A stretch of DNA of 64,000 nucleotides. It comes from Candidatus Firestoneibacteriota bacterium (lineage in GTDB: Bacteria > Oederibacteriota > D2-FULL-39-29). Below are positions 31,923-52,297 of the stretch, in pieces. The translations under genes and the position numbers were made by a program. Position 1 is the stretch's first letter; each line of letters begins with the position of its first letter. The DNA lies in NCBI GenBank assembly GCA_903891415.1, contig CAITEH010000012.1, forward strand, positions 1,136 to 65,135, written 5' to 3'. The notes below the pieces were generated by a model. It did no database searches. It was not told where the DNA came from and saw only the letters and a list, made by a program, of their open reading frames with translations.

Positions 31923-32801
31923 TCATCTGAAGCGCAGCGCCCTTGCCCTGAAGAAATTTATCAGGGGTTTCACATAGGAGCTTCCCGTGGAGATATCTAC
32001 ACTGTCCACCTTCGCGCTCTTGAACAGCTTTTTGAGGACTTCCACCTCTTCCCACCTGGTTTCCTTGAATTTTTTTCTGAACGCGGCATCCGTGCTGTCC
32101 AGTACCGCCATTTCTCCGGTTTCGCTATCCTCTATTTCTATAAACCCGGCCTGCGGAAGTTCCTGTTCAAGATTATCGGTAATACGCAGGGCTATAAGAT
32201 CATGTTTTTTCGCGGTTATTTTCAGGTCTTTTTCAAAGCCCCGGTCCAGAAAATCTGAGACCAGAAAGACGACCGCTTTTCTCTTGATAACTTCATTCAA
32301 ATACTGCAGGGCCGCTTTAATATTGGTGGCTTTTCTCCTGGGCTCAAAGGATATCATCTCCCGTACTATCCTCAGGATATGCTTGAGGCCCTTCCTGGGA
32401 ATAATGACCTTTTCAATAGTATCGGTAAAACCTATCATGCCGACCTTATCGTTATTCTTCGTGGCGGAAAGCGCCAGCAGGGAAACCAGCTCCGCGGCCA
32501 TTTCATTTTTAAATTTTTCCGCGGTGCCAAAAAAGCCGGAACTTGAAAAATCAACAAGAAAAACCACCGTCAATTCCCTTTCTTCGACGAATTTTTTAAT
32601 AAAAGGCCTGCCGAACCTGGCGGTGACATTCCAGTCAATGGTGCGGATATCGTCGCCCGGGAAGTATTCCCTGACTTCGGCAAACTCTATGCCGCGCCCT
32701 TTAAAAATACTTTCATACTGGCCCGCAAAGGTCTCACTGACCAGGCGGCCGGTCTTTATTTCGATACGCTTAACTTGTTTGAGTATTTCCTTGGAGATCA
32801 T
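31923..32801 (-). CDS. DUF58 domain protein (MoxR-operon partner)
   Basis: 292 aa. FKGRGIEFAEVREYFPGDDIRTIDWNVTAR is the hallmark DUF58 motif, and the gene lies directly downstream of MoxR. Confidence 0.88.
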   Translation of the reverse strand: MISKEILKQVKRIEIKTGRLVSETFAGQYESIFKGRGIEFAEVREYFPGDDIRTIDWNVTARFGRPFIKKFVEERELTVVFLVDFSSSGFFGTAEKFKNEMAAELVSLLALSATKNNDKVGMIGFTDTIEKVIIPRKGLKHILRIVREMISFEPRRKATNIKAALQYLNEVIKRKAVVFLVSDFLDRGFEKDLKITAKKHDLIALRITDNLEQELPQAGFIEIEDSETGEMAVLDSTDAAFRKKFKETRWEEVEVLKKLFKSAKVDSVDISTGSSYVKPLINFFRARALRFR

Positions 32802-32832: not shown

Positions 32833-33022
32833 CCCACCACAAAGCGTTGGTGGGTTTCACTACCGTTCAACCCACCACAGAGCGTTGGTGGGTTTCACTA
32901 TCGCTCAATCCACCACAAAGCGTTGGTGGATTTCACTGCTGTTCAATCCGCCACAAAGCGTTGGTGGATTTCACTGCTGTTCAACCCGCCACAGAGCTTT
33001 GGTGGATTTCGCTGCCGCTCAA
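32833..33022. repeat. Five head-to-tail 38-bp repeats, each a 7-bp-stem hairpin (REP-like tandem array)
   Basis: The units are 32833-32870, 32871-32908, 32909-32946, 32947-32984 and 32985-33022. The consensus is YCCRCCACARAGCGTTGGTGGRTTTCACTRCYGYTCAA with stem CCCACCA/TGGTGGG. There are no spacers between units. Confidence 0.9.
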
Positions 33023-33039
33023 CTTCCGAGATAAGGGAA

Positions 33040-34029
33040 TTAGGGCACCTCTATCTGGTCGAATATCTGTTTGATTATATTCTCGGAGGTTATCTCTTCC
33101 GCTTCGGCTTCGTAAGTCACGATGACCCGGTGGCGGAGTATATCCGCGCCCACAAGTTTAACGTCTTCCGGGGTTACATAGCCCCTGCCGTTTATGAAGG
33201 CCAGCGCTTTTGCCGCCTGGATAAAATAGATACTCGCCCGGGGTGACGCGCCGTAAGCTATAAGATTCCTCAAGTCCCCCAGTTTATACTTCTCCGGCTC
33301 CCTGGTGGCAAAAACCAGGTCCAGCACATAATTCTTCACTTTCTCGTCAACATAGATATCATTGACCACTTTCTTTACCCTGATAATGTCCGCCGGGGCG
33401 GCCGTCTTTTTTACTTTTATTTCCTTATTCCCCGCCATGCGGTCTATGATCTGATTTTCTTCTTCTTTGCTCGGATAGTTTATCTTAAGTTTCAGCATGA
33501 ACCTGTCGGTCTGCGCTTCCGGCAGGGGATAAGTGCCTTCCTGCTCAATGGGGTTCTGGGTCGCTATCACAAGAAAAGGCGCCGGCAGGGGATAGGTAGT
33601 GTCACTGATAGTTACCTGGCGTTCCTGCATGGATTCAAGCAGAGCGCTCTGGACTTTTGCCGGAGCCCGGTTAATTTCATCCGCGAGTACAAGGTTGGTA
33701 AAGAGCGGCCCTTTCTTCATGGAGAAAGTCCCGTCCTTGGGGGAAAATATCAAAGTACCGGTAAGGTCCGCGGGGAGCAGGTCAGGCGTGAACTGTATCC
33801 TCTGGAATTTAAGGTCCAGCGCCGCCCCCAGGGTCTTTACCGAAAGCGTTTTAGCCAGGCCCGGAACACCTTCAATAAGTATATGCCCGTCCGAAAGCAG
33901 TCCGATAAGCATCCTGCTGATAAGATACTGCTGGCCGACTATCACCTTCCCGATCTCGACCGAGAGCTCGTTAATAAAAGCACTCTCTTTCTTTACAAGT
34001 TCATTTAGCTCTTTGATATCCTTTTCCAT
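33040..34029 (-). CDS. moxR: MoxR-family AAA+ ATPase
   Basis: 329 aa. It has Walker A GVPGLAKT, LADEINRAPAKVQSALLESMQE, and ATQNPIEQEGTYPLPEAQTDRF (MoxR signature). Confidence 0.93.
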   Translation of the reverse strand: MEKDIKELNELVKKESAFINELSVEIGKVIVGQQYLISRMLIGLLSDGHILIEGVPGLAKTLSVKTLGAALDLKFQRIQFTPDLLPADLTGTLIFSPKDGTFSMKKGPLFTNLVLADEINRAPAKVQSALLESMQERQVTISDTTYPLPAPFLVIATQNPIEQEGTYPLPEAQTDRFMLKLKINYPSKEEENQIIDRMAGNKEIKVKKTAAPADIIRVKKVVNDIYVDEKVKNYVLDLVFATREPEKYKLGDLRNLIAYGASPRASIYFIQAAKALAFINGRGYVTPEDVKLVGADILRHRVIVTYEAEAEEITSENIIKQIFDQIEVP

Positions 34030-34272
34030 ATCTAAGATCCTCCCGGGGTATGTTTTTGATTTAACGGTAAAATGCCTCTAAGCAGCTATTCATATTCCCT
34101 TAGTTACCTTATCTGTGTCCGCCTACGGCGAGATCTCGCCAAAATATTTGGCGGATCATCAGTCCTATCTGTGTCATCTCTCTCAACATCTGTGCCATCA
34201 GCCAAAATCCTATTTGGCTTATTCTAGCATAGTAATAGACATTTTTTCATCCAAAAATGTTCCCAATAGCAC

Positions 34273-34312
34273 AAGGTCCATAAGGTCTAAAAGTCTATAA
34301 TGTCCATAAAGG
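34273..34312 (+). repeat. Short array (about 4 units) of the 9-bp GTCYRTAAR repeat family
   Basis: The sequence is aaGGTCCATAAGGTCTAAAAGTCTATAATGTCCATAAAgg. The same unit occurs at 37834, 39275 and 52298. Confidence 0.7.
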
Positions 34313-34496
34313 AAAATGAATAAATAGGCAACTCTCTTTGTCATCCTCGCGCAAGCGGGATTCAGCATCTTTATAGTTGCTCAATTTCCGTCTCAGGCGG
34401 ATCTGCCTAAGGCAGGACATCGCCTGCCAATTGCCTCTAATAAATCAAGAAATTACAATTATTTCCACTCCTTTAGCGTGTAGTTTATTTCGCTCT

Positions 34497-34907
34497 CTAT
34501 TTTTTCGGCAATTGTTTTTCAACCCAAGCATAAAAGCGTATGGTATTTTTTTTAATAGCAAGCGCTTGTTTTTCCGTAGCCAAACAATCCAGATATTCAA
34601 CATTGTTTTTTTGTTTGATCACTTCTAACATATGTTTTTGCTGATGTTTTACTTCCGGAAGATTAATAAGTCCGGACATCAACTTTACTGCATCCTCATG
34701 ATTAGCACTGGAACTTACATATCCAAAATTAAATACAAGCAGTGCATCCAGAAGCGAAATTACACCATGAATCCCGCATAAGGCAGCAGTATCAAAGTCT
34801 CTCTTTTTTAAACAATCCTCCATATTCCTGCAAAATTCTCCGCCTTTTATAAAGTAGTTAATATATGTACTTTTCTCTCTTGTCTTTACCGGTATTTTCC
34901 TTGTCAC
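34497..34907 (-). CDS. HEPN-domain protein (partner of the upstream nucleotidyltransferase)
   Basis: 136 aa, overlapping the upstream gene by 50 nt. The helical pattern FIKGGEFCRNMEDCLKKRDFDTAALCGIHGVISLLDALLV is HEPN-like. I do not see an Rx4-6H nuclease motif. Confidence 0.65.
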   Translation of the reverse strand: MTRKIPVKTREKSTYINYFIKGGEFCRNMEDCLKKRDFDTAALCGIHGVISLLDALLVFNFGYVSSSANHEDAVKLMSGLINLPEVKHQQKHMLEVIKQKNNVEYLDCLATEKQALAIKKNTIRFYAWVEKQLPKK

Positions 34908-35529
34908 CGTATTCCCCCTTGAGTGCTTTTTCAGCTTTTTTCCCGTAAATTAATTCCCCTTTTTCTATTTCGGTCAAAATAGCTTTACCCGCTGCTTTTT
35001 CTTTTTCATATTCTTTTATAGTTAATACAAGCGGCGCAAGCATATTACCTGTCGCCTCCAGCATCTGCACCGCTAGGTTGCCGCATTTTTCTTCTACTTC
35101 GTTTTTTTCTTTGCCGCCTTTTACCAGGATAAAAATATCAATATCACTGTTTCCTCTCTCTTCTTTCCTTCTGACACTGCCAAAGAGTATCACGCTCAAA
35201 CTCCTGCTAAAGATCGGCTTTAAATATTTTCGCAGTATCAAACCGGGAAATTCCTTCTCTTGCTGAAAAAGATCTTTGAGAAAAATAACTACAAATTCGT
35301 TCTTCAGATTCAGTCTGTGCAAACCCGCCCGTCCGGCTCTTTTGGATAAGACAAGCCCTTCTTCTTCCAATTCTTTCAAAGCATTCTGTGCCTGGGTATG
35401 CGATATACCGATAAATTGCGCCAGTTCCCGCCCCGTCACCTCCGTTTTATAAAGACAAAGAAATCTGAGTATTTTTATTTTGCTGGGATTAGAAAATACT
35501 TTTTCCAAGACATCATTTAAATACACCAA
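34858..35529 (-). CDS. wHTH + minimal nucleotidyltransferase (MNT) fusion protein
   Basis: 223 aa. The N-terminal ArsR/MarR-like wHTH is KILRFLCLYKTEVTGRELAQFIGISHTQAQNALKELEEEGLV. The NTase motif is LFGSVRRKEERGNSDIDIFILV (GS...DxD). Confidence 0.8.
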   Translation of the reverse strand: MVYLNDVLEKVFSNPSKIKILRFLCLYKTEVTGRELAQFIGISHTQAQNALKELEEEGLVLSKRAGRAGLHRLNLKNEFVVIFLKDLFQQEKEFPGLILRKYLKPIFSRSLSVILFGSVRRKEERGNSDIDIFILVKGGKEKNEVEEKCGNLAVQMLEATGNMLAPLVLTIKEYEKEKAAGKAILTEIEKGELIYGKKAEKALKGEYGDKENTGKDKREKYIY

Positions 35530-35803
35530 ATTCTCCTATGGATACTATAATTTACATATGTCAACTATAGTTTACATTAAGAATTGCCCCCTGTCAACAA
35601 GATTTTATTCTTTTCACAACCGCTTCAGACTCTTTTCAATTTTGAGTACAATTGTACTCCATTTAGAATTTCATCCCCCGAATTCATGCTTAACAATCTA
35701 ATCATACAAGGAAAAGAACAGTTTTCAAGGATTTTTTTCCTTATTAATAAAGCTGCGTTCTATGTGAATATGTGATTATTAAGCTGATTATTCGGGAAAA
35801 AAG

Positions 35804-35812
35804 TGCTATAAT
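35804..35812 (+). promoter_or_regulatory. Extended -10 promoter candidate upstream of typA
   Basis: TGCTATAAT (TGnTATAAT) lies ~145 nt upstream of the typA ATG. The only -35-like element is weak (CTGATT at 17-nt spacing). Confidence 0.3.
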
Positions 35813-35956
35813 ATTAGGGCTTTTGGATGAGTATTTCTTTAACTCCAAATTAGAAAGGATCCTCGAAAGATTCTGTTTTCGTTCCGCAGGTTGCCTGTTC
35901 ACCGAAAGAAGAAAACACCAAATATTAGAACAACTATTTTTAATGGAAGGTAAAGC

Positions 35957-37822
35957 ATGAAACGCAACAATATCAGGAATGTCGCCATTATCGCGCATGT
36001 TGACCACGGGAAAACCACGCTTGTGGACGCGATGCTCAAACAGTCCAACGCCGTCAAGCTTAACACGGAAAACACCGACCTTATTATGGACAGCATGGAC
36101 CTGGAAAGAGAACGCGGTATCACCATTAAAGCCAAGAATGCCTCGCTTATCTATAAAGATATCAAGATAAATATCGTGGACACGCCGGGGCACGCTGATT
36201 TTGGCGGAGAGGTTGAAAGGACTTTAAGAATGGCGGACGGGGTACTGCTCGTGGTGGACGCGAAAGAAGGCCCGATGCCGCAGACCAAGTTCGTCCTTAA
36301 AAAAGCCCTGGAACTCGGGCTTAAGGCCGTCGTAGTCGTCAACAAAATAGACCGGGTGGATTCCTATATTGACGAGACGGTAAACAAGACCTTTGACCTT
36401 TTTGTTAAACTGAACGCGAATCATAACCAGCTGGATTTTCCGATAATTTACGCCTCCGGTATTAAAGGACTGGCTTCACAATCTGCCGAAGACCTGCTGG
36501 CAAAACTGGCGGATGAAAATACCGCTCCCGATATCACGCCTCTCTTTGATACCATAATCACCCATATTCCCGCGCCGGAGGTTTTTCCGGATGATACCTT
36601 TGCCATGCAAGTGCTGGCGCTGGCCTATAACAATTATAAAGGCCGGCTCGGTATCGGCAAGGTGAAATTCGGCAAAGTTACAAACAATGCAACCTGCTTG
36701 ATGATAAAGCAGGACGGCACTCGGGTCACTTCTAAGATAACAAGTTTACAGATGTATGAAGGCCTCAAACAGGTTGATGTTACCGAGGCGTCGGCGGGCG
36801 ACATAGTAGCCATCGGCGGCTTTGAGGACATTCATATAGGCGACACGGTCACGGATCCTGAAAATCCCAAGGCTTTACCGCCCGTGGATATAGAACCGCC
36901 TACAATCAAGATGACCTTCGGCGTCAACACGGCGCCCTGGTCGGCAACGGAAGGCAAGTTCAGCACCTCGCGCAACCTGCGGGAACGGCTGGCTAAGGAA
37001 CTTGAGACGAATGTGGCGCTTAAAGTGGACGGCCTCGATGACGGGACGGATACTTTTCTGGTTTCCGGCCGCGGGGAACTCCATCTTGCGGTGCTTATCG
37101 AGACCATGCGAAGGGAAAATTATGTGCTGCAGGTAGGACAACCCCAGGTTATTTACCACGAGAAAGACGGGGTCATGCTGGAACCTTATGAAAATGTTTA
37201 TATTGACGTGCCCAAAGAACATCAGGGTATAGTTATAGAAGAACTCGGGAAGCGCGGCGGCGAAATGCAGCATATGGACGCTTCCGGCCACGGGGATGTG
37301 CGCGCGGAATACCTTATTCCTACACGCGGTTTGCTTGGCTTAAAGAACCTGCTCATGACCCGGACAAAGGGGACAATTGTTATTAACAGCCTTTTTGATT
37401 CCTATAAACCCGTCCATGAAATTGACCTCAGGGACAATACTCACGGCTCGCTTATTGCCAATGAATCAGGTACCTCAAATCCTTACGGCCTGGATAACGC
37501 CCAGGACCGCGGGGTTTTATTTATCGCTCCCGGTGTGGAAGTCTATGAAGGCATGGTCGTAGGCCGGCACGCTCTGGATACCGACCTGGAAATAAATGTC
37601 TGCAAAAAGAAAAAGGCCTCTAATCAAAGGTCTGTGGGCAGCAGTGACCCTGTCGTCCTTCCGCCTCCGGTGGATGTAACACTGGATTTTGCCATAGAAT
37701 ATGTCGGGCAGGATGAACTCGTGGATGTTACTCCCAAGAGCATCAGGATAAGAAAAAAGATCCTGGGGGCTATAGAGAGAAAACGGCTCAGAAGAACAGA
37801 CGAAAAAATGAACCCGCTGTAG
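35957..37822 (+). CDS. typA: Translational GTPase TypA/BipA
   Basis: 621 aa. The sequence shows [53 protein letters not shown] and NKIDR, followed by the BipA-specific C-terminal domain. Confidence 0.95.
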
Positions 37823-37833
37823 GGAAAGTGATA

Positions 37834-37953
37834 GTCATAAAGTCTATAAGGTCCATAAGGTTCGTAAAGTCTATAAGGGCGTAAGGTCTGGAAGGGCAGG
37901 AAGGGCAGAAACGTCTGTAAAAGTCCGTAAAAGTCTATAAAGGTCTATAAAGG
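37834..37953 (+). repeat. Array of about 13 units of the 9-bp GTCYRTAAR repeat family
   Basis: The array reads GTCATAAA GTCTATAAG GTCCATAAG GTTCGTAAA GTCTATAAG GGCGTAAG GTCTGGAAG GGCAGGAAG GGCAGAAAC GTCTGTAAAA GTCCGTAAAA GTCTATAAAG GTCTATAAAGG. It fills the gap between the convergent typA and GT4 genes and overlaps the last 3 codons of GT4. Confidence 0.85.
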
Positions 37954-39249
37954 GGTGTTTAACATTTCTTTTTCGTAAAAACTTACGGTTTCTTCCACCA
38001 TCTTTTCCTGAGAATAGGAAACCAGCGCGCATTTTCTTCCGTTACTTCCAAACTCAGAGGCCTGTACCGGGTTTTCCATTATTTTAAGAAGTCCTTCCGC
38101 CAGGGCTTCCGGATCATTTGGTTTCACCAGGATACCGGCATTGCCCTTATTTACAAATTCCCTGTAGATACCGGAATCCGGAAGCACAACGGGAATACCC
38201 GAGGCCATGGCTTCAAGCACCGCAAAACCCCGGGATTCGGAAAAACGGCTGGGAACTGAAAAAACACTCAGGCCTTTTAGAAAATCAGCTTTTTCTTTAA
38301 GCCCGGGTACTCCGGAGTAATGGAACCTGTCCGACAGCCCCTCTTCTTTAAGGCGTTTTTTGCAATTCTTAAAATACACTTTGTGCCTCGCGCCCAGAGT
38401 AAGCCCGGCGGCCCAAAACTCCGCCTGCTTGCCGTATTTTTTTGCAAGCAGAATGAACGCTTCCACCAGCAGGTCAAAACCCTTGGCGGGCATTATCCTG
38501 GAAAGAAAGCCGATCTTGAACGGCTCAACGGCCCGCTTTGCCTCAGGTTTGTAATAGCCCGTATTTATTCCGAACGTCCGGGTCTCCACCCTGGCTTTAT
38601 CAACCGCGAGAAAATAAGCCATCTCCTCGGCATACGCTTTCGACGGGGCAAGGAATTTTTGAATATATTTTGTGTTCACGCGCATCAGTTCCTGGGCCTC
38701 CTTTGCAAAAGGAGCCGGGAGGTGGCTGATAAAATCTTCTTCCCCCATAAGCTGGCAGTAGATCCGGGCTTTAAGCTCTTTTTCTATAACAGGCGCGATG
38801 CCTATCAGCATGGAATTTGTGATGATAACTATGTCCGGCGTGCCGGCTTTTTTCATGGCTTCGACCAGGCGGGCCACTTCCCTCTGCTGATAACCCTCAT
38901 TACCTTTAAGGACCGAAACGGTCATGGCTCCCAGCCGGGCAGGGTCTATATCAATGGAAAAAGACATCATAAGTTTCAGCAGGGAAGGTGATTCCAGGAG
39001 TTTATCCAGAAGCCCGGGGCTTCTTTTTCTGAAAGGTTCAAAATTCTGTTCAAGAAAGGCGTTTATTCCAGAAAAATAGATCTTTTTTTCTTTCCGGGGA
39101 AGTTCAAAGTCAACTTTTACGGGGGTATAAAGCGGGTAGATAGAAACCTCGTGCCCTTTATTTATAAGCCCCTGAGCCAAATACATATCGTGCATACAGG
39201 CCCCGCAGTACATTTCCCCGGCCCCGGCCGTAATAAGGTCAATTTTCAT
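37945..39249 (-). CDS. Glycosyltransferase family 4 (GT-B, group 1)
   Basis: 434 aa. The C-terminal half LSVFSVPSRFSESRGFAVLEAMASGIPVVLPDSGIYREFV contains the GT4 E-x7-E region. Confidence 0.88.
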   Translation of the reverse strand: MKIDLITAGAGEMYCGACMHDMYLAQGLINKGHEVSIYPLYTPVKVDFELPRKEKKIYFSGINAFLEQNFEPFRKRSPGLLDKLLESPSLLKLMMSFSIDIDPARLGAMTVSVLKGNEGYQQREVARLVEAMKKAGTPDIVIITNSMLIGIAPVIEKELKARIYCQLMGEEDFISHLPAPFAKEAQELMRVNTKYIQKFLAPSKAYAEEMAYFLAVDKARVETRTFGINTGYYKPEAKRAVEPFKIGFLSRIMPAKGFDLLVEAFILLAKKYGKQAEFWAAGLTLGARHKVYFKNCKKRLKEEGLSDRFHYSGVPGLKEKADFLKGLSVFSVPSRFSESRGFAVLEAMASGIPVVLPDSGIYREFVNKGNAGILVKPNDPEALAEGLLKIMENPVQASEFGSNGRKCALVSYSQEKMVEETVSFYEKEMLNTPL

Positions 39250-39274
39250 GGGAGCAGTACCTGATGAAAAGAAT

Positions 39275-39360
39275 GTCCATAAAGTCTATAAGGTCTAAAC
39301 GGTCTATAAGGTCCATAAGGTTCGTAAGGTCTGTAAGGTCTGTAAAGTCTATAAGGTTTG
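39275..39360 (+). repeat. Array of about 10 units of the 9-bp GTCYRTAAR repeat family (strict 9-nt phase)
   Basis: The array reads GTCCATAAA GTCTATAAG GTCTAAACG GTCTATAAG GTCCATAAG GTTCGTAAG GTCTGTAAG GTCTGTAAA GTCTATAAG GTTTGAAAA. It starts 26 nt from the GT4 start codon. Confidence 0.88.
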
Positions 39361-39398
39361 AAAAAGTTCATAGAGTAAGCTCTCCTTTTTCTTTTAGA

Positions 39399-41006
39399 TT
39401 ATCCCTGATTTCTGATCTCTTTTTCAAGGTAAATGGCACCGGTCGGGCAGGCCCGGGCGCATTCTTCAGAAACTTTTTCCTGCAGTTTATTAAATTTCCT
39501 GTTGAAAGGGAGCCCTATTTTAGTTTTGAAACCCCTGCCAATATAGGCCATGCTGTCAAATTCCCCGTGTTTTTCGCATATTTTCACGCAAATACCGCAC
39601 ATGATGCATTTCCCTGATTCATAAACAACCCCGGTCTTTTTAATATCCCTGGAGAAACCCCGTTTTTCGCCTTTTAAAGCGTCCGGCTCCGCGTTATACT
39701 CGATCGCGTATTTCATTAAAAGACAGGCAGCCGCTTTCCGGCACTCACACCCCAGGCATCTCAGGGCTTCTTCGATAACCTCGCCTGCAGTAAAAGGCAG
39801 CCTTTCCTCCCCCGGGTTCTCCGTTATGATTTTCATATCCACCATACTGTTCAGAAAACGTCCGAGCTCCGGAGCTCCCTTTAAGAATAGCTCCTGCTCT
39901 TTTTCGGAAAGTTTTCCCATCCGCGCGGAAAACGGTTTTTTTTCTATCCCGGGCTCCAGGCCGTTCAAATACCTGTTTATGGAGCCGGCCGCCCGCCTCC
40001 CCACTTCGGAGGCCCTGACCGCCAGAGTCGTTTTGGGCCCGGCAAATACTCCCTTGATACCGGCCGCGTAAGTTTCTTTCTCAAAAACCACACCGTTTGG
40101 GCCGGTACGCACGCCTTCTTTTTCCAGGCCTACCAGATCCTCCGGGTTGCTCCCCGCGGCCAGGAAGACCGCGTTAAATTCCCGTAAAAGGTCTTTCAGG
40201 AATATATCCCTGTGCAGTACTTTTTTTTGTTCGAACTTTACGCCCAGCCCGGCTATTACGGCTATTTCTTTGTTTAAAATTTCATCCGGCAGCCTGTCTT
40301 TACTGATAGCATACCTTAGCGTTCCCCCCGCCTTTTCATTTTTATCATAAACCACCACTTCGTGACCGTATGCGCGCAGGTAATAGGCCGCCGTAAGCCC
40401 CGCGGGCCCGGCCCCTATTATGGCGGCCTTCTTACCGGTCGCTTTTGCGGCCTCCGGGCTGAAAGGTTTTCCTGAATAAAGGTCAAAATCGGCGGCGTAT
40501 CTTTTAAGATGGCAAATGGCGACCGGCGCGTCACCGTCCTTCCTTCTGCACACTTTCTCGCATACCTCCGGGCAAATTCTCCCGAGGACCGCCGGTAAAG
40601 CCACCTTCTGCTTAATGGTCCTGAGCGCGGCTCTATTGTCGCCTCTTTTAAGTTCGGTGATAAATTTTGGAATATCTATATGCGCAGGGCAGCCGGATTG
40701 GCAGGGCCCCAGGCAATCCCCCGTATGGTCCGACAGTAATAATTCCAGAGCCCGTTTTCTGGCCTGCCTTACCCTCGCGGTTTCTGTATGAATACTCATG
40801 CCGGCTTCCGCTTTGGCCGCGCAAGCCGGAACAAGCGCCGGTTTACCTTCCACTTCCACCACACAGATAAAACAGGTGGTCAAAGCCCCGATTTCCTTAA
40901 GGTAGCACATTGTGGGAATAGTAATACCGTTCCCGGCCGCGGCTTCCACCAGATTCTCGCCTTCCTTGAAATTATAGGTACTGCCGTTAATTTTTATTTC
41001 AGGCAT
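39399..41006 (-). CDS. GltD-like NAD(P)H/FAD oxidoreductase with N-terminal 2Fe-2S ferredoxin domain and C-terminal 4Fe-4S domain
   Basis: 535 aa. The N-terminus IKINGSTYNFKEGENLVEAA..GITIPTMCYL is a NuoG/HydA-type fer2 domain. Also present are the GltD alpha-helical FeS region (DHTGDCLGPCQSGCP, RICPEVCEKVCRR), the dinucleotide motif AAIIGAGPAGLTAAYYL, and C-terminal CIMCGICVKIC ... CARACPTGAI. Confidence 0.85.
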   Translation of the reverse strand: MPEIKINGSTYNFKEGENLVEAAAGNGITIPTMCYLKEIGALTTCFICVVEVEGKPALVPACAAKAEAGMSIHTETARVRQARKRALELLLSDHTGDCLGPCQSGCPAHIDIPKFITELKRGDNRAALRTIKQKVALPAVLGRICPEVCEKVCRRKDGDAPVAICHLKRYAADFDLYSGKPFSPEAAKATGKKAAIIGAGPAGLTAAYYLRAYGHEVVVYDKNEKAGGTLRYAISKDRLPDEILNKEIAVIAGLGVKFEQKKVLHRDIFLKDLLREFNAVFLAAGSNPEDLVGLEKEGVRTGPNGVVFEKETYAAGIKGVFAGPKTTLAVRASEVGRRAAGSINRYLNGLEPGIEKKPFSARMGKLSEKEQELFLKGAPELGRFLNSMVDMKIITENPGEERLPFTAGEVIEEALRCLGCECRKAAACLLMKYAIEYNAEPDALKGEKRGFSRDIKKTGVVYESGKCIMCGICVKICEKHGEFDSMAYIGRGFKTKIGLPFNRKFNKLQEKVSEECARACPTGAIYLEKEIRNQG

Positions 41007-41013
41007 ATTCTGT

Positions 41014-43377
41014 TCACTCCAGATCTACCGCTTCCGATTTGCATACGGCCCTGCAGGAATCGCATTTAATACATTTTCCCTGGTTTATTTCATGCTTTTT
41101 AAAGGGCTGTGCCTGTATGGCTTCTGACGGGCAGGCCTGCGCGCAAAGCGTGCAGCCGATGCATTTGTCGTTTACGGTATATTTGATCAGGTCCTTGCAT
41201 TTTTTAGCCGGGCACTTCCCTTTTACATGCGCCGCATATTCTTCTCTAAAATATTTAAGAGTGGTCAACACCGGATTGGGGGCCGTTTTTCCCAGGCCGC
41301 ACAAGCTCCCCGCCTTTATATCATTTGCCAGCGTTTCCAGCCGGGCAATATCTTCAAGCTGGCCGCGGCCCGCGCAGAACCTGCCGAGAAGCTCCAGCAT
41401 CCTTTTTGTGCCTATACGGCAGAAGGTGCACTTGCCGCAGGATTGGTCCTGGGTGAACTCAAGAAAAAATCTCGCGAAATCTACCATGCAGTCGGAATCA
41501 TCCAGCACGACCAGCCCGCCCGAGCCCATAATGGCGCCGGTCTCTGTTATCTTTTCAAAATCTATAGGCAGATCAGCCAGACTCTCGGGGATACAGCCCC
41601 CGGAAGGGCCGCCTATCTGGACCGCTTTGAATTTTCTCCCTTTTTTAACCCCGCCCCCGATACCTTCGACCACTTCTCTTATAGTTATCCCCATGGGCAC
41701 TTCTATCAGGCCGCCTCTTAGAACATTACCCGCGAGCGCGAAAACTTTGGTGCCCTTGCTCCTGGCGGTCCCTATCCCGGAATAATTTTCGGCGCCGTTT
41801 TTTATTATCCAGGGCACGCAGGCATAGGTCTCCACGTTGTTAATATTTGTCGGGCAGGCAAACAGGCCGCTTACCGCGGGGTACGGCGGACGGAAGGCCG
41901 GCATGCCGCGCCTGCCTTCTATAGAAGCTATAAGAGCAGTTTCCTCCCCGCAGATAAAAGCGCCGGCTCCGCGGAAAATATGAAGTTTCAAATTGAAACC
42001 TGTCCCCAGAATATTATTTCCCAGGAGCCCCTCTTTCTCGCACTCCGCCAGCGCGTGCCTGATGTTTTCCAGAGCCAGCGGGTATTCTTCCCTGATATAT
42101 AAATAACCCTCGTCAATGCCGATGGCAAAAGCGGCAAGAGCAATACCTTCAAGCACCCTGTACGGATAGGACTCCAATAACATCCTGTCCATAAAAGCGC
42201 CGGGATCACCCTCGTCCCCGTTGCAAATTATGTATTTCTTCCCGGCCCGGGAGGCCCTTGTGAGCTCCCATTTTAACCCGGTAGGAAAACCGGCTCCGCC
42301 CCTGCCCCTGAGCCCGGACTTCTTGACTTCAGAAATTATTTCCGCCGGCTGCAGGGACTTAAGCGCCTTTTCCAGCGCGGTAAAGCCGCCTTTTTCCTTA
42401 TATTCCTGAAGATCAAGCGGGTCCACTTCCCCGTAATTCTCAAGGACCAGCCTTTTTTGGGGGCCCAGAAAAGCGCAAGCCGGGCCTTTATCCAGAGCCA
42501 GAGGATCTATCTGCTCCGGCCCGTCGTAATACTCAAAGGTAAAAAAGTCATAACCTTTTTTAATTGTGTTCAAGAATTTCTTAACGGGCCCGGCCGGCAG
42601 GAGATGTTTATCACAGATAAGTTTTACATCCTCCGGTTTAACATCTGCATAAAACGTGGAAACGCCTTCCGGAGACACAACTTCGGTAAAAGGATTACTG
42701 TGGCACATACCCACGCAGCCGACCTTCTTGGTGACCGCTTCCAGCGAATTCCGGTCTATATATTCGTCAAAAGCATCCTTCACATCCTTGCTGCCGCTCG
42801 CGACACAGCAGGAACCGAGCCCGATCTTAATGACTGTTTTACCTTTGGCTTCCGGGACGGATGTTTCCGGAAGGCCTTTTTGCAGATTGCCGGAGACGGT
42901 ATTCAGAAAAAGGCCGATCATATCGGGTATGGACTGGGCGGTCACATGCCCGTAGGTAAGCCCGTCTATCTTGACCACGGGCGCCAGCGTGCAGCACCCG
43001 AAGCAGGCGGCCTTCTCCACCGTAAAGAGCCCCGTAACGTCGGTGTCTTTACCTTCTTCTATCTTCAAATAACGCCTGACCGCATCCGTTATCAACGGCG
43101 CGCCTTTAACATGGCAGGCCGTTCCGTGACAGACCGCAAGGACATGTTTACCCACCGGCGTATGCCGGAACTGGGTGTAAAAAGTGGAAACGCCGGTTAT
43201 CTGCGCTCTGGTAATTTCGGTAAGCTCGCAGACCCGCTGCAGCGCTTCCTCCGGCAGGTAGCGGAAATGTTTCTGCAACTCCTGTAAAATAGGAATTACC
43301 AGCCTGCTCTCTGTGCCCAGCGAGGCCACGATGGTTTTAACTACTTCAAGGTCTATGTGCTCTTTGTTTTCGTTCAC
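41014..43377 (-). CDS. Fused NuoE-like + NuoF-like NADH-binding FMN/FeS flavoprotein (HydC-HydB/BfuC-BfuB type)
   Basis: 787 aa. The GTG start overlaps the upstream stop (GTGA). It has a NuoE thioredoxin-like 2Fe-2S (VCHGTACHVKGA...CFGCCTLAP), a second 2Fe-2S-like insert (GSCCVASG...VGCVGMCH), a NuoF core (RGRGGAGFPTGLKW, SCGKCTFCRIG, SLCGLGKTAPNP) and a C-terminal 2x[4Fe-4S] (CIGCTLCAQACP, CIKCDSCRAVC). Confidence 0.9.
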   Translation of the reverse strand: MNENKEHIDLEVVKTIVASLGTESRLVIPILQELQKHFRYLPEEALQRVCELTEITRAQITGVSTFYTQFRHTPVGKHVLAVCHGTACHVKGAPLITDAVRRYLKIEEGKDTDVTGLFTVEKAACFGCCTLAPVVKIDGLTYGHVTAQSIPDMIGLFLNTVSGNLQKGLPETSVPEAKGKTVIKIGLGSCCVASGSKDVKDAFDEYIDRNSLEAVTKKVGCVGMCHSNPFTEVVSPEGVSTFYADVKPEDVKLICDKHLLPAGPVKKFLNTIKKGYDFFTFEYYDGPEQIDPLALDKGPACAFLGPQKRLVLENYGEVDPLDLQEYKEKGGFTALEKALKSLQPAEIISEVKKSGLRGRGGAGFPTGLKWELTRASRAGKKYIICNGDEGDPGAFMDRMLLESYPYRVLEGIALAAFAIGIDEGYLYIREEYPLALENIRHALAECEKEGLLGNNILGTGFNLKLHIFRGAGAFICGEETALIASIEGRRGMPAFRPPYPAVSGLFACPTNINNVETYACVPWIIKNGAENYSGIGTARSKGTKVFALAGNVLRGGLIEVPMGITIREVVEGIGGGVKKGRKFKAVQIGGPSGGCIPESLADLPIDFEKITETGAIMGSGGLVVLDDSDCMVDFARFFLEFTQDQSCGKCTFCRIGTKRMLELLGRFCAGRGQLEDIARLETLANDIKAGSLCGLGKTAPNPVLTTLKYFREEYAAHVKGKCPAKKCKDLIKYTVNDKCIGCTLCAQACPSEAIQAQPFKKHEINQGKCIKCDSCRAVCKSEAVDLE

Positions 43378-45077
43378 TTATTTCCTATGCAAACAAGATT
43401 CTTTTCGCTTCTAATAAATATTCTGCCGCCCGCAAAGGCAGGCGAGGCCGAACATTTCTCGCCCATATCCATGGTTTTGATCAGTTTGCCGCCGTAGCTT
43501 ACCGTATAAACCTTGCCCTGCTGGGAAGGTATATAGACGGTGCCGTTTACCAGGGAAGGGGAAGCCCAGAAATCATCTTCCAGCGCAAGCTTCCAGAGGG
43601 TTTTTCCTGTTTTAATATCCTGCCCGGTTATCAAAGAGTTCATCGCGACCACAAGAATTTTCCCGTCGGTGACGGGCGTGTTTATGGCCTGATTTTCTTC
43701 CTGCATGGACCAGGCTATTTTTGTTTTAGTTACCTCTCCAAAACCCCCGGGAGTGATAGCGGTAACGGTCGAGACCGAGCCGACGTCAATAACGACAACA
43801 ACGCCGCCGCCATAGACCGCGGAAGTGGAGATCTCTCCGGCAAGGCATTTTACCCGCCAGAGCTCTTTCCCCGTTTCCGGGTCATAGGCTATCACCTGCT
43901 CCGGCCCCGTGGTTATTATTTCATTTTTCCCGTTATGTTCAATTATTATGGGCGTGCCCCAGGAAGCGCCGTCCGGCCTTTTCGTCTCCCAGACGGTCTT
44001 GCCTGATTTTTTGTCCAGCGCGGCTATTTTTGAAAGCCCTTCTCCGCCCAGGTCCAGCTGCACTATGATATTTTTTTTCCAGAGTACCGGGGAAGAAGAA
44101 AGGCCGTAAGTATTTTCCGTTTTCCCGAAATATTTGACCCAGAGCTGTTTTCCTTTCAGGTCAAAGCAAACCAGGTGATCCGTGGCAAAGAGCGCAAAAA
44201 CATGTTCCCCGTCGGTCACCGGTGTGGGCGCGGCATAACCCGCCCCGCCGGCGTCTTCCGACATTATTTCAATATCTTCCAGCTTGACCGGAACCATTAC
44301 GCTGGAAGCCCATTTACAGCTGCCTTTTACCGCATCATAGCAGAGCACCTTCAGGACTTTGCCTTCACTGCCGGTAAGGAAAAGGTTATCCTTATAAACC
44401 ACCGGGGAACTGTAGGATCTCGCGGACAGGGCCGTTTTCCAGAGAATATTTTTTCCTGTTTTCAGGTCCCATTCCCCCGCGTAATTCCCTTCCTTCACCA
44501 GCCCGCTGCCGGCCGGGCCGCGAAAACTATTCCAGCTCGAAGACAGGTCGATTTCTTTTTCGTTCCCGGCAGCCGCCGCCTCAAAGCCCATTTTTCTGGC
44601 GCCCAGGACCGCGAACACCCCGAGCAGGCCCAGGAGGACGAGTCCCGTTACCGCCGCAGCGGCCAGAGAGTTATTAATTCCCGCGCCCCCGGCCCTATAA
44701 ACTGTTTCACTGCCCTTTTTTACCTCAGGGATCCTTCCGGTCAGGGCCCGTTCAAAACGCAGAGCGAGCAGAGCCAGCAGGAGAAAGACAATAAATATAT
44801 TTTTACCTTGCTCCAGAATAACGCTCTTTCTGAAAAAAGCGGCCCTTTCCTTCAGGTCTTTTTCCCTGAACTCCCGGAGCAGATTCTCGTGATCCGGATA
44901 TTTATCAAGTTTGGCCTTGAGGGCTTCCAGCGCCGGGGAATCCTTAATATTGCCCTGCTGGCCCGTTAGATAATAGCCGGCCAGGAAAAGCGCGGCAATA
45001 AGAGCAATAGCCGCGGACGCAACGGCCGCCTGCTTTAACGCGAGGCGGAATATGTTATTTAACGTTTCTCTGTCCAT
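43374..45077 (-). CDS. Membrane-anchored (about 3 TM) PQQ-like beta-propeller repeat protein
   Basis: 567 aa. The N-terminal ~170 aa carries three hydrophobic helices. These are followed by repeated xxALDxxTGKxLW-type blades (VLCYDAVKGSCKW, LVCFDLKGKQLW, IAALDKKSGKTVW, VIAYDPETGKELW, ITGQDIKTGKTLW). Confidence 0.85.
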   Translation of the reverse strand: MDRETLNNIFRLALKQAAVASAAIALIAALFLAGYYLTGQQGNIKDSPALEALKAKLDKYPDHENLLREFREKDLKERAAFFRKSVILEQGKNIFIVFLLLALLALRFERALTGRIPEVKKGSETVYRAGGAGINNSLAAAAVTGLVLLGLLGVFAVLGARKMGFEAAAAGNEKEIDLSSSWNSFRGPAGSGLVKEGNYAGEWDLKTGKNILWKTALSARSYSSPVVYKDNLFLTGSEGKVLKVLCYDAVKGSCKWASSVMVPVKLEDIEIMSEDAGGAGYAAPTPVTDGEHVFALFATDHLVCFDLKGKQLWVKYFGKTENTYGLSSSPVLWKKNIIVQLDLGGEGLSKIAALDKKSGKTVWETKRPDGASWGTPIIIEHNGKNEIITTGPEQVIAYDPETGKELWRVKCLAGEISTSAVYGGGVVVVIDVGSVSTVTAITPGGFGEVTKTKIAWSMQEENQAINTPVTDGKILVVAMNSLITGQDIKTGKTLWKLALEDDFWASPSLVNGTVYIPSQQGKVYTVSYGGKLIKTMDMGEKCSASPAFAGGRIFIRSEKNLVCIGNK

Positions 45078-46350
45078 CTCTTTTCAACTGCTCCTGTCTT
45101 TCCACGGGGCAATCCATAAAACACCTGCCGCAGGAAAGGCACCTGGCGCCGTCCGGTTCATAGATCTCCCGTTTAGGTTTTCTTGAAGCATACAACAACT
45201 GCAGGCCCAGCACAAACATGATCCAGAGCCCCAGCAGGGAACCGCCTTTTTTGAACTTATTCTTGAGCGCCTCCGCCCTGGTAAAAAGAAGCTCCGGGCT
45301 CTCCCCGCTGTCCAGATAAACTTTCACCTCGTCAGAAATACCGCCGGGGCCGGGACCCTCTTCATAATAGGCGTGTATTTCCACGGCCAGCCCGACTTCT
45401 TTATTATAGGCAGAACAGAAAGCGCCGGTGTAGTTCCCGAGTATGACTCCCGCGAGCAGGCCGGAAATAAATAAAATTGCAGGGAGAGCACCTTTCTTGA
45501 TATTTCTTTTTTCCGGCTTTTCAGGTTTATTGATGGCGCCAAAAGGACAGGAGTCCTCGCAGAGCCGGCAGACAATGCATTTATCCGGAGTCACGGTCAC
45601 TTTATTCCTGCTCACCAGGGAAAGAGGTTTTAACAGCGCGCCATAGGGACAGATAAAACGGCAATACGGGCGCCCGATAAAAAGCGAGAGTACCAGAAAT
45701 ATTCCTCCGGTCACAAGCATAGAGAAAGGCCCGGTAAGCCGGAAGAACGGAACAAAAGGATCGTATTTACAGATAAGAAAAGTTGAGCCGGTCACCGCGA
45801 AAAGTACGGCCAGGCCGAGATAGATATAGGCGAACAGGGAAAGAGAACGGTCAAGCCAGCGCGGTATTTTCAGCTCTTTTATCAAAAGCAGGTCCTGCAG
45901 CGCGCCATGCGGGCAGGCGCCGCCGCAATAGGCCCGGCCTGCAAAAAGCGAAGCCGCCAGGGGAATAATAAAAATCAGTACCGCCGTAAACGGCATATAA
46001 TAGCCGGGTGAGGAAAGCGCCAGGGCGGCATCCTGTACCGCGCCTATGGGACAGATACAGCCCTCCTTATAAAATCCAAAATAAAGAAGAGAGAACAAGG
46101 AGAGGAGCATGATAATATTTCTGGATCTTTTTTTGAGAGAAGCCCAGGCAGAAAGTAAAATAACCGCAAGCAGAATAAAAATATCCAGATATGCCAGAAT
46201 TTCGGCCCGGGCGGGAGGCCTCTGCATGACCGGCAGGGAGTAATTGGACTCAAACTCCGGAGGCGGGAATTTATATTCCGCAAAAACCGCCCCGAGGGCC
46301 AGACAGAGAAATATTGAGGCAATAAAAAGTCTTTTATAATTTATTTTCAT
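45055..46350 (-). CDS. NapH/NosH/MauN-like polytopic 4Fe-4S membrane protein
   Basis: 431 aa with AAGGAAGG RBS and multiple TM helices. It has two CX3CP motifs (YCGGACPHGAL, YCRFICPYGAL) and two ferredoxin motifs (CIVCRLCEDSCP, CLSCGRCFMDCP). Confidence 0.85.
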   Translation of the reverse strand: MKINYKRLFIASIFLCLALGAVFAEYKFPPPEFESNYSLPVMQRPPARAEILAYLDIFILLAVILLSAWASLKKRSRNIIMLLSLFSLLYFGFYKEGCICPIGAVQDAALALSSPGYYMPFTAVLIFIIPLAASLFAGRAYCGGACPHGALQDLLLIKELKIPRWLDRSLSLFAYIYLGLAVLFAVTGSTFLICKYDPFVPFFRLTGPFSMLVTGGIFLVLSLFIGRPYCRFICPYGALLKPLSLVSRNKVTVTPDKCIVCRLCEDSCPFGAINKPEKPEKRNIKKGALPAILFISGLLAGVILGNYTGAFCSAYNKEVGLAVEIHAYYEEGPGPGGISDEVKVYLDSGESPELLFTRAEALKNKFKKGGSLLGLWIMFVLGLQLLYASRKPKREIYEPDGARCLSCGRCFMDCPVERQEQLKRDGQRNVK

Positions 46351-46909
46351 TTCCTTCCTTGGTTATATAGGGGCTGGCGGCCGGGATCCGGACAAAAGCA
46401 TTTGCCGGGCAGGCACTGGCAATAAGGCATTCATTACAGTTTTTGCACCGGTCGTGCCGGACCTGCAGCTGGAGAGAGCCGTTCCCGAAAGCGGTACAGC
46501 CGCTCACGCACTTCCCGCAGCCGACACAGAGTTTTTCCTTGATAGTGTATTCATAGTAGGGCTCTTCAACGAATTTTCTTTTTATCGCCCCGGTCGGGCA
46601 AAGTTGATTCTCCCCCCCGCTGTTCAGGTCGCGCTGGCCGGCCTGGAAAAACCCGAAACACAAATTACAATAACCGCAGATGGAGAAGTTATGCACGCAT
46701 TTGACCGCGGAGATCCGAAGGACGCATTCCGTCGCGCACCTGCCGCATTGCGTGCATTTTGCCGGGTCTATCTGCCAGACGGCGGAACTTTTTTTTGAAC
46801 GCGCGAGCGCGGCGCCGCCCGCCGCCCCGAGCACCGCCAGAAAAATACCCCGGCCGGTATTTTTCAGGAATTCCAAACGCGATATTTTTTTTGTTTTATT
46901 TTCTTCCAT
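46334..46909 (-). CDS. NapG/MauM-like periplasmic 4x[4Fe-4S] ferredoxin with Tat-like signal
   Basis: I prefer the ATG at 46909 (MEENKTKKISRLEFLKNTGRGIFLAVLGAAGGAALA). There are four Cys clusters: CTQCGRCATEC, CGYCNLC..CP, CVGCGKCVSGC and CKNCNECLIASACP. The 39-aa extension in the track ORF overlaps the upstream small gene. Confidence 0.8.
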   Translation of the reverse strand: MEENKTKKISRLEFLKNTGRGIFLAVLGAAGGAALARSKKSSAVWQIDPAKCTQCGRCATECVLRISAVKCVHNFSICGYCNLCFGFFQAGQRDLNSGGENQLCPTGAIKRKFVEEPYYEYTIKEKLCVGCGKCVSGCTAFGNGSLQLQVRHDRCKNCNECLIASACPANAFVRIPAASPYITKEGNENKL

Positions 46910-47138
46910 GGCCTGTTTCCCTGACCGTCCATTTTGAATTAAAAGACCCTTTTGCGTCCAGCGAGCAATTAGTTGCGTCTTTGCACGCGGCGCACCGGCT
47001 GTAAGCCCGGCAAGCCGTTCCGCCAAAGATATTTTTGGCCGTCAGGATACCGGTAACTCCGCCAAGCAGAGCCAGCCCCGCGTAGCGGAGAGACTTTTCA
47101 AGCAGTTCCCGCCGTGAATATTTATTTTTTAAATTCAT
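46896..47138 (-). CDS. 80-aa Tat-signal peptide-bearing 4-Cys protein (unknown family)
   Basis: An ATG at 47138, preceded by GGGGG, gives MNLKNKYSRRELLEKSLRYAGLALLGGVTGILTA (canonical SRRxLL twin-arginine motif). The mature part is ~45 aa: KNIFGGTACRAYSRCAACKDATNCSLDAKGSFNSKWTVRETGHGRK. It overlaps the next start by 14 nt. Confidence 0.5.
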   Translation of the reverse strand: MNLKNKYSRRELLEKSLRYAGLALLGGVTGILTAKNIFGGTACRAYSRCAACKDATNCSLDAKGSFNSKWTVRETGHGRK

Positions 47139-47172
47139 GTGACCCCCGGATCTTCCGCCAGAGACGGATAAT

Positions 47173-48423
47173 TTACTTAGCCCCGCTTTCAGCAATATCC
47201 AGGCAGAGCATTTCGGTCATGCTCCTGATAACCAGTTTTCCGCCGGAAACAGCCAGCGGAGCCCACATCTGCTTGCCTGTTAACGCGGCAAATTTCGAAA
47301 TTTCCTTATATCCTGAAGCGGTAGGTTCCAGAAGAAATAAAGTGCCGGTATCCCCGAGAACATACAGCAGGCCGTCTATTATCAGGCAGGGACCAAGCCC
47401 GACTTTAACTTTGGAGCTCTTCCAGAGGACCTTGCCGTTCAGGTCCAGGCAGTATATTTCACCTGAGGCCCCGTAAATATTGTCCTTATACAATATCGGT
47501 GTTTGGACTTTCGAACCAAAATCTTTTTCCGTTAGCCTGGTAATTTCCTCGGTAACGACCTCATTCCCGTTCTTTTTCAGCCCCAGGATAAGGCTTCCGG
47601 CGCCATAACCACCCGTAAAGAATATTCTATCCTTGCCGATAACAAGGGGCGCGGGAATATTCGCCGTTTTAACGGTCCACCCCGGGTGGGTCCAGCGAAG
47701 TTTACCGTCAGCGGCGGCAACCCCGAAGGCGCCTTTTTTGGAACAACCGATATAGAATTTTTCCTTTTCAAAATCCATAACGGTTATCGAATTATGGGTC
47801 ATGCCCCAATTGCTTTCACACGGAGTTTCCCAGGCAGTTTTCCCTGAAGCAAGGTCAAAAGCCGCCATTAAGACCTTATCGCCCGCAACCAGAATGATAA
47901 CTTTGTCCCCGTCTATAAGGGGATTTTGGCCCGCGTACCAGCCGGGCACCTTACTGCCGTATTCCTTGACAAGGTTCTTCTGCCAGGCAAGTTTCCCGCT
48001 GTCTTTTTCCAGGCAGGAGACCAGGCAGTTAGTCCCCAGGGTCACCACATATTTGCCGTTAACAGCCGGCACCGTCCTGGAGTAATCATACTGAGAGGGT
48101 TTTATTTTTGAGGGGTAGCCGTAGGACCAGGCCTCTTTCCCGTCCTTCATATCGAGGCATTTTACCGTGTCTTCTTCTTTGTCGGTGTTATAGTCGAGAA
48201 TAAACAGTTTATCTTCAAACACCACCGGGGCGGCAAACCCGCCTCCGACTTTAACCCGCCAGAGTTCTTTGGGGCCTTCCGCGGGCCATTTCTTCAGCAG
48301 TTTTTTCCCGGTCGTAACCACCCCGTTCCTGTTTTCCCCCAGAAACTGCGAGAAATTGTCCGCCAGCACGGCGGAAACGGCCAGCAGCACGAAAAGCAGC
48401 AACTTTATTTTAGACATATACAT
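47173..48423 (-). CDS. Secreted PQQ-like beta-propeller repeat protein
   Basis: 416 aa with a Sec signal (KIKLLLFVLLAVSAVLA). Blades include VKCLDMKDGKEAW, VSCLEKDSGKLAW, MAAFDLASGKTAW and IYCLDLNGKVLW. It is a clear paralog of the 49767-51170 product. Confidence 0.85.
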   Translation of the reverse strand: MYMSKIKLLLFVLLAVSAVLADNFSQFLGENRNGVVTTGKKLLKKWPAEGPKELWRVKVGGGFAAPVVFEDKLFILDYNTDKEEDTVKCLDMKDGKEAWSYGYPSKIKPSQYDYSRTVPAVNGKYVVTLGTNCLVSCLEKDSGKLAWQKNLVKEYGSKVPGWYAGQNPLIDGDKVIILVAGDKVLMAAFDLASGKTAWETPCESNWGMTHNSITVMDFEKEKFYIGCSKKGAFGVAAADGKLRWTHPGWTVKTANIPAPLVIGKDRIFFTGGYGAGSLILGLKKNGNEVVTEEITRLTEKDFGSKVQTPILYKDNIYGASGEIYCLDLNGKVLWKSSKVKVGLGPCLIIDGLLYVLGDTGTLFLLEPTASGYKEISKFAALTGKQMWAPLAVSGGKLVIRSMTEMLCLDIAESGAK

Positions 48424-52278: not shown

Positions 52279-52297
52279 AGGGCACCCGGAAAAATAT

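Follow-up and report, generated by a model that had tools for sequence, protein, structure and literature searches.

The window (the whole stretch of 64,000 nucleotides that was analysed, G000:C12:1136-65135) comes from a MAG of 2.50 Mb in 86 contigs (44.7% G+C, 86.7% complete) for which a crude in-house caller gave a map of 2091 genes (88% coding). It contains four arrays of tandem GTYYRTAAR units, all on the + strand, located upstream of a MoxR-like gene, between the convergent typA and GT4 genes, upstream of GT4, and upstream of a BamB-like gene. An earlier note on this DNA had listed four same-strand arrays, and a re-reading of the sequence confirmed their number, strand and positions. The window holds 30 strict GTCYRTAAR matches compared with 3.09 ± 1.84 in shuffled sequences (largest value 9), and TRF picks up all four arrays. 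Split into units, the arrays show a period of 8–10 nt; the 9-nt period described earlier applies to many units but not as a strict rule.

The first array (34276-34310, + strand) is a four-unit arm (GTCCATAAG GTCTAAAA GTCTATAAT GTCCATAAA, one of them an 8-mer) that sits 246 nt upstream of the start of the MoxR-like gene (34029, minus strand) and forms the left edge of a segment of ~1.5 kb that is missing from the same-genus genome G001. Nearly identical 35-bp four-unit arms are also found on contigs C6, C18, C21, C26 (twice), C36, and C39. The second array (37833-37952, + strand) is a composite of five nonamer-type, four degenerate GC-richer, and four decamer units. Its nonamer-type arm (37833-37877, + strand; GTCATAAA GTCTATAAG GTCCATAAG GTTCGTAAA GTCTATAAG, the first a truncated 8-mer) begins 11 nt beyond the typA stop codon (37820-37822) and is joined by the degenerate units (37878-37912, + strand; GGCGTAAG GTCTGGAAG GGCAGGAAG GGCAGAAAC) to a decamer-type four-unit arm (37913-37952, + strand; GTCTGTAAAA GTCCGTAAAA GTCTATAAAG GTCTATAAAG). 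The convergent GT4 gene takes its last three codons and its TAG stop codon (37945-37947, minus strand) from the final unit of the decamer arm; the GT4 protein is otherwise alignable to its relative through residue 431 of 434.

The third array (39275-39360, + strand) has ~10 units and reads (CTTATAGAC)n in the sense of the gene. It is located 25 nt ahead of the GT4 ATG (39249, minus strand) and 38 nt past the stop codon of gene 39399-41006. The fourth (52298-52376, + strand), 19 nt upstream of the start of the BamB-like gene (52278, minus strand), comprises two 35-bp blocks of four units and one further unit (nine in total), each block closing with an 8-mer (GTCTAAAA or GTCTCAAA). It is abutted by a single inverted unit (CCTTTATGGG, 52379-52388, minus strand), possibly what is left of a partner arm. 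Apart from this vestigial unit, the four window arrays lack partner arms, an inner module (see below) and cargo genes. The long window arrays look like whole arms that were joined or duplicated, with GTCTMAAA 8-mers at the seams and, in the nine-unit array, TRF periods of 26 and 35 in addition to 9.

The 8- to 10-nt units are not palindromic individually, and they follow each other head to tail without the unique spacers of similar length and the repeats of at least 23 bp that characterize CRISPR; on both points the earlier description was accurate. It was also reasonable in treating the ORF at 39264-39617 (117 aa), which passes through the third array and overlaps the opposite-strand gene 39399-41006, as a repeat artefact.

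Less survives of two roles that the same description had considered, namely that a TATAAG in each unit acts as a –10 element in promoter or antisense-promoter arrays, or that the typA/GT4 array replaces a missing terminator. Units do contain TATAAG, although some contain TATAGA instead, and no hairpin terminator is present between typA and GT4 in this genome, whereas typA is followed by a canonical terminator (GC hairpin and T-run) in the relative G004, and in G002 and G005 by a GC hairpin that lacks a clear T-run. However, a promoter and terminator scan of 37600-39600 placed no site in any array and gave counts for the region equal to the shuffle expectation, no array contains a sigma-70-like pair of hexamers, and a 9-nt period cannot set –35 and –10 hexamers 16–18 nt apart. 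The four arrays fold no better than shuffled sequences on either strand (z from –1.1 to +0.55), and a search of 33000-53000 against Rfam found no match. Both roles are therefore extremely unlikely. DnaA boxes, CsrA sites, and Hfq ARN repeats, considered as candidate motifs, were dropped because the sequences do not fit.

Other features lie close to the arrays. A sigma-70-like site is present at 39398-39427 (minus strand; TTGAAA, 18 nt, GATAAT; 10 of 12 matches) at the 3' end of gene 39399-41006; if real, it would start the GT4 transcript just upstream of the third array and give it a 5' leader of (CUUAUAGAC)n. Five head-to-tail copies of a 38-bp unit (32833-33023; CCCACCACAAAGCGTTGGTGGATTTCACTGCCGTTCAA, 88% matches), each with a CCACCA...TGGTGG palindrome, fill the spacer that separates the MoxR-like gene, at its 3' end, from gene 31923-32801 (minus strand). 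These repeats resemble REP-like hairpins arranged in tandem with no spacers between them, and they do not represent CRISPR.

Genome-wide number and placement of the arrays

A total of 440 strict units were identified in the genome. Arrays of at least three units number 101 by pattern scan and 99 by TRF (75 with period 9 and 17 with period 10), and since only 11 of them reach at least 7.5 units (median ~3.8 units), the window holds several of the longest. Overall, 169 of 4182 array bases (4%) fall within called genes in a genome that is 88% coding. The earlier statement that the arrays are confined to intergenic DNA is thus essentially correct, but not for the last unit of the typA/GT4 array, which encodes the end of GT4.

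Neighbouring arrays <400 bp apart form 17 convergent (+ then –) pairs with gaps of 14–337 bp and not a single – then + pair. Another 67 arrays, including those of the window, are unpaired, and such solo arms make up about two-thirds of the family. Of 83 co-directional cases, 71 have the outer end of the array closer to a gene boundary than the inner end (p = 2e-11), and the same is true of 42 of 51 solo arrays. From the outer end, the median distance is 11 nt where the boundary is a stop codon and 28.5 nt where it is a start codon, the latter leaving the ribosome-binding site intact. Arrays lie just past a stop codon in 37 cases and just ahead of a start codon in 46, and they are enriched in convergent spacers (12 out of 97 arrays vs. 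5.4% expected). The shared strand of the four window arrays follows from this orientation rule and from their flanking genes on the minus strand. The genome scan and the table of gene boundaries thus bear out the dispersed and oriented family that had been proposed: ~100 arrays are found across the genome, and their placement is clearly not random but tied to gene ends.

Many arms continue inwards into a conserved inner module, which is either GTCTAAAATCGTTGAAGGATAT (at least 25 copies) or GTCTTACATTAAGG (7 copies), indicating that the array copies descend from a defined sequence and were not grown in place from nothing. A sigma-70 reading of this module (TATATT with an upstream –35) was discarded because inspection revealed no acceptable –35. 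The variation among units consists almost exclusively of transitions. An inspection by eye of 12 pairs, whose arm boundaries are fuzzy, revealed no consistent direct repeat that could represent a target-site duplication, and the PF00078 (reverse transcriptase) profile has no match in the genome (86.7% complete). Taken together, these two results support no known mechanism of mobility.

Inverted arms around four-helix-bundle genes

Three loci of the genome match the PF05635 profile, one each on contigs C33, C51, and C43. The C33 gene is intact (PF05635 123 bits, TIGR02436 117 bits) and the C51 gene is decayed; both are located between inverted arms of GTYYRTAAR units. The arms of the C43 gene differ and are made of heptamer units. 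The genome thus contains a single intact PF05635 gene with GTYYRTAAR arms for ~100 arrays, and none of the four window arrays adjoins a PF05635 gene. Among the relatives, five of seven inspected PF05635 loci carry arms of the same core (L114, L117, L119, L126, and L127, in G001, G002, G004, and G005), two of them as decamers, and decamer arms like the one at 37913-37952 flank the PF05635 genes of G001 (L127) and G004 (L126). The C33 cassette (G000:C33:34648-35223; L031/L118) lies between a gene for a peptidase S24 (UmuD/LexA-like) protein with an adjoining 82-aa ORF and a gene for a Y-family (IMS) DNA polymerase, and it occupies the same locus in G001 and G002. A cassette of the C51 type is common to four genomes, and its arms consist of 9-mers in G000 and G005 but of 10-mers in G001 and G004; the period of both arms changes jointly and the GTCYRTAA core is kept.

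The generality of this arrangement was assessed in a sample of 80 proteins that are related to the one encoded at C33 and were drawn from many phyla; the 71 with full flanks were analysed. Tandem arrays with a 6- to 12-bp unit are present on both sides of the gene at 62 of 71 loci, compared with 2–3 in dinucleotide-shuffled flanks, and the two sides are reverse-complementary at 45 of 71 loci, compared with none in shuffled flanks. Arms in this multi-phylum sample measure ~4.3–4.65 copies at periods 7, 8, and 9 alike, and 41 of 51 units start with GTT or GTC. One locus of the sample, from Candidatus Firestonebacteria bacterium KR_bin-0439, is 100% identical to G001 over 1551 bp. The solved homologues 2GSC and 2RLD were each deposited with five chains, and the S23p protein of X. 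campestris is a homopentamer (PMC4990558). The literature search found no paper that ties the PF05635 family to dispersed intergenic arrays.

Each of the 17 paired elements of the genome forms a long hairpin over its whole length (–25 to –103 kcal/mol). This property, together with an RNase III gene in the genome, raises the question of an action at the level of RNA, in which the paired arms would form double-stranded stems in operon transcripts that are cut by RNase III in the manner of rRNA intervening sequences (IVS), punctuating the polycistronic mRNA or freeing the cargo mRNA, and solo arms would be decayed halves. A precedent exists in the ORF-bearing IVS of 23S rRNA, with a 28-bp stem cut by RNase III, an S23p ORF, and heptamers whose number varies between strains (PMC4990558). 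The position of the intact C33 cassette within a gene cluster, the joint change of period in orthologous arms, and the predominance of transitions among unit variants are also consistent with RNA pairing. However, the transcript-sense and antisense strands fold equally well (–49.9 vs. –49.3 kcal/mol, p = 0.98, n = 16), which gives no preference for an RNA-specific role over a DNA palindrome, and strand asymmetry was accordingly dropped as a sign of selection on RNA. Moreover, the window arrays have neither a partner arm nor structure, and pairing alone leaves the maintenance of one core in ~100 copies and across the order unexplained. On balance, an action at the RNA level appears improbable.

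Comparison with related genomes

At the four window positions, the same-genus genome G001 is empty at two, carries a different repeat element at one, and carries a complete two-armed element at one. The complete element is found upstream of GT4, where G001 and L030 (metagenome contig) have both arms and no gene; it consists of four units, a core of ~130 bp that ends with CTTCAACGATTTTAGAC, and five inverted units, compared with one ten-unit arm in the window. The search of metagenome contigs returned one GT4 relative, and it closely resembles G001 at this locus. At the GT4-upstream site, G002 and G004 carry an arm of four decamers, and G003 carries no array. An arm upstream of GT4 is thus present, in remodelled form, in G000, G001, G002, and G004, which represent two genera.

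The variation in unit number and period at this site (10 nonamers, 4 decamers, or 4+5 paired units) would fit a contingency tract, prone to recombination or slippage, in which changes of unit number switch surface-related genes such as the GT4 glycosyltransferase; these are differences at the level of species. The higher-order duplications in the long arrays and the strain-variable heptamers of the Coxiella IVS (PMC4990558) point in the same direction. However, units of 9–10 nt that lie in non-coding DNA cannot cause frameshifts, the tract is not flanked by promoter hexamers whose spacing would be altered by unit changes, and most arrays adjoin housekeeping genes or follow stop codons. A role as contingency tracts is accordingly very doubtful.

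The spacer between the BamB-like gene and VanZ is empty in G001. Past the typA stop codon, G001 (L028) carries a heptamer-armed hairpin with ATTAGYA-type units (ttactaataactgattgctaattactaat ... ttattagctatcagaaattagcaattagttatt), which, together with the GC hairpins found there in G004, G002, and G005 (see above), indicates that this site was occupied repeatedly by different elements. Neither the array upstream of the MoxR-like gene nor the adjacent ~1.5 kb is present in G001. The missing segment (window ~34270-35790) contains two minus-strand ORFs, of which 34858-35529 shows weak matches to ArsR-type HTH proteins and MntA-like nucleotidyltransferases and 34497-34907 has no family match; it may represent an inserted MNT/HEPN-type toxin–antitoxin module.

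The distribution of arrays and gene was surveyed in the genomes of 17 relatives. Ten genomes of the order contain both many arrays and a PF05635 gene. Because the same units recur in these ten independently assembled genomes, the arrays are not an assembly artefact of the MAG studied here. G003 lacks a PF05635 gene and retains just 2 residual matches to the unit pattern, G007 has weak PF05635 gene fragments and no arrays, and five genomes from other families of the phylum, outside the order, have neither arrays nor a PF05635 gene. The reversed pattern, used as a control, gave 0 in all 17 genomes. The compared genomes are related to one another, and the co-occurrence counts, which are not independent, represent a consistent pattern rather than statistical proof. 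The 8-nt core GTYYRTAA is kept across the order, and the surrounding spacers are unalignable. Overall, the earlier interpretation of the arrays is partly supported. Its suggestion of iterated protein-binding sites is possible and is favoured indirectly by the order-wide conservation of the core.

Known elements and the proposed cassette family

The paired elements share several properties with the ORF-bearing IVS of 23S rRNA found in Coxiella burnetii (S23p) and Leptospira: complementary ends that form a long stem, a PF05635 ORF in the loop, number-variable short tandem repeats beside the ORF (heptamers in Coxiella), a patchy distribution, and ORF decay. The long stem from complementary termini is found in the family (17 out of 17 pairs) but not in the four window arrays, and the PF05635 ORF in the loop is found at C33, C51, and five loci in relatives. 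In contrast to the IVS, all copies examined here are located between protein-coding genes and not in helix 25 or 45 of 23S rRNA, their stems are built from tandem 8- to 10-nt units, and each genome contains ~100 copies that are mostly gene-less or one-armed. Since they are not in rRNA, the elements lack the location that defines an IVS.

A second likeness is to the spacers of Geobacter metallireducens, in which paired arrays of 3–5 tandem 7- to 9-nt repeats were described as "putative global regulator binding sites" of classes 1–3 (Aklujkar et al. 2009, PMC2700814). Most of these sites are paired on opposite strands at a variable distance, for example, between proB and proA (PMC2700814). Both sets are multicopy, lineage-specific, and located in gene spacers, with 3–5 tandem short units and mostly opposite-strand pairs in Geobacter, and 99–101 arrays (median ~3.8 units, 96% of bases non-coding) with 17 convergent pairs at variable distance here; the unit sequences and the phylum differ. 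The elements described here fit the Geobacter description. The Geobacter paper proposed binding by IHF or HU without a test and reported neither a link to four-helix-bundle genes nor expanded solo arrays (PMC2700814).

Other classes of repeats were compared as well. REP/BIME elements, REPINs with their RAYT transposases, and MITEs are also short, non-coding, intergenic, palindromic, and of high copy number, and their non-autonomous copies far exceed any associated gene. However, the imperfect palindromes of ~20–40 bp that make up REP/BIME (REPIN) are absent, as the units here have 8–10 nt and are not individually palindromic, and the arms are tandem arrays. With regard to MITEs, inverted arms are present, and the 12 inspected pairs, with their fuzzy arm boundaries, showed no consistent target-site duplication to the eye; the filled and empty sites available for comparison differ too much in sequence to be aligned base by base. 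No transposase is associated, and the gene encodes a four-helix bundle and not an HUH or DDE enzyme. The STRR heptamers of cyanobacteria, dispersed intergenic arrays of tandem 7- to 9-nt units with no known function, resemble the elements described here and differ in unit and taxon. The Avd protein of diversity-generating retroelements (DGR) is a PF05635 relative within a superfamily of basic pentameric four-helix bundles that bind nucleic acid. The genome studied here has no template/variable repeat architecture, and a link to DGR was rejected because no reverse transcriptase match was found in the 86.7% complete genome.

It is likely that the window arrays are arms, solo and mostly expanded, of a family of palindromic, intervening-sequence-like cassettes and not free-standing microsatellites. 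Their identity as cassette arms is well supported; as judged from sequence, the assignment rests on the identity of the units, the architecture of the arms, and the orthologous two-armed element in G001. A complete element would read, on either strand, 5'-(GTYYRTAAR) x 3–5, inner module (GTCTAAAATCGTTGAAGGATAT or GTCTTACATTAAGG), core, inverted inner module, (YTTAYRRAC) x 3–5-3'. Such an element would fill the spacer between two genes and would therefore border, at its outer ends, on the stop codon of the upstream gene and the ribosome-binding site of the downstream gene. The core contains a PF05635/TIGR02436 four-helix-bundle gene, of the family of the 23S rRNA IVS protein S23p and of the DGR protein Avd, in a few copies, and it is short and gene-less in most. 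Three of the window arms would have grown by joining or duplication of whole three- to four-unit arms. The proposal builds on the observed family membership, the rule of orientation and position, the presence, absence, and remodelling of elements among relatives, and the order-wide core with its co-occurrence with the gene.

A trans-acting factor that recognizes the GTYYRTAA core would keep the arms alike and spread them. Such a factor is suggested by the maintenance of the core in ~100 copies and across the order, by variable linker lengths, and by arms of 4–5 units whatever the period, for which pairing alone is insufficient. Because of this unit number, the likeliest factor is the cassette's own, probably pentameric, protein, and we infer that the four-helix-bundle protein, which is the only conserved cargo, binds the units. 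It is probable that the solo arms of the window serve no purpose specific to typA, GT4, or the BamB-like gene, although the retention of the GT4-upstream arm across two genera could mean that this arm has a function in the host and is not a neutral leftover.

The arrays could, alternatively, be operator-like iterated sites for a global regulator or nucleoid protein of the host (IHF, HU) that tune transcription of the GT4, BamB-like, and MoxR genes, with the PF05635 link being secondary. Aklujkar et al. proposed regulator sites of this type for the analogous Geobacter arrays (PMC2700814), and this reading would agree with an 8-nt core that is kept order-wide amid unalignable spacers, with the GT4-upstream arm kept in both genera, with array ends 8–30 nt from start codons, and with a decamer subfamily that phases A-tracts at about one helical turn. 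However, arrays are equally common past stop codons and ahead of start codons, they are enriched in convergent spacers, which are free of promoters, the array is missing from G001 at three of the four window sites, and the adjacent genes share no function. The Geobacter proposal is itself a guess in which binding of IHF or HU is putative. Host regulator sites are for these reasons considered unlikely.

Returning to the cassette family, a more specific and tentative possibility is that the GTYYRTAA arrays are the cognate nucleic-acid sites of a pentameric S23p/Avd-like protein, each unit taking up roughly one protomer and each arm containing 4–5 units. One or a few genes might then service ~100 gene-boundary sites in a system that would be kept across the order; it would either copy arms into further spacers or act on the DNA or RNA of operons at these boundaries. 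If true, a very widespread protein family of no assigned role would gain its first function, and rRNA intervening sequences, the Geobacter "regulator sites," and dispersed short tandem repeats would all belong to a single type of element. Few bacterial genes of no known function are more common than those of the PF05635/TIGR02436 family, and short dispersed tandem repeats in gene spacers are equally unexplained. The genome studied here joins the two at scale, with ~100 arms, one 8-nt core, a strict geometry relative to stop and start codons, persistence across the order, and turnover within a genus. Binding of the protein to core units, and the consequence of this binding, can be tested in a laboratory host. 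Genome annotators should not interpret arrays of this type as promoters, terminators, CRISPR remnants, or ORFs; the arrays can also supply neighbouring genes with their stop codons, as is the case for GT4.

Outside the nonamer family, the genome contains 193 further short-period arrays, with several heptamer families among them (GGTTCTG/CCAGAAC, GTACTTT, AGTAATT, AATAGAG, and, around the C43 PF05635 gene, ACGAATK); examples are found at C43:12900-13480, C66:46996-47026, and C24:35356-35496. At G000:C50:2198-2265, a four-unit decamer arm is followed directly by a canonical terminator hairpin (GGGCGGGAAAATTTCCCGCCC and a T-run), indicating that arms and ordinary terminators can coexist past the end of a gene.
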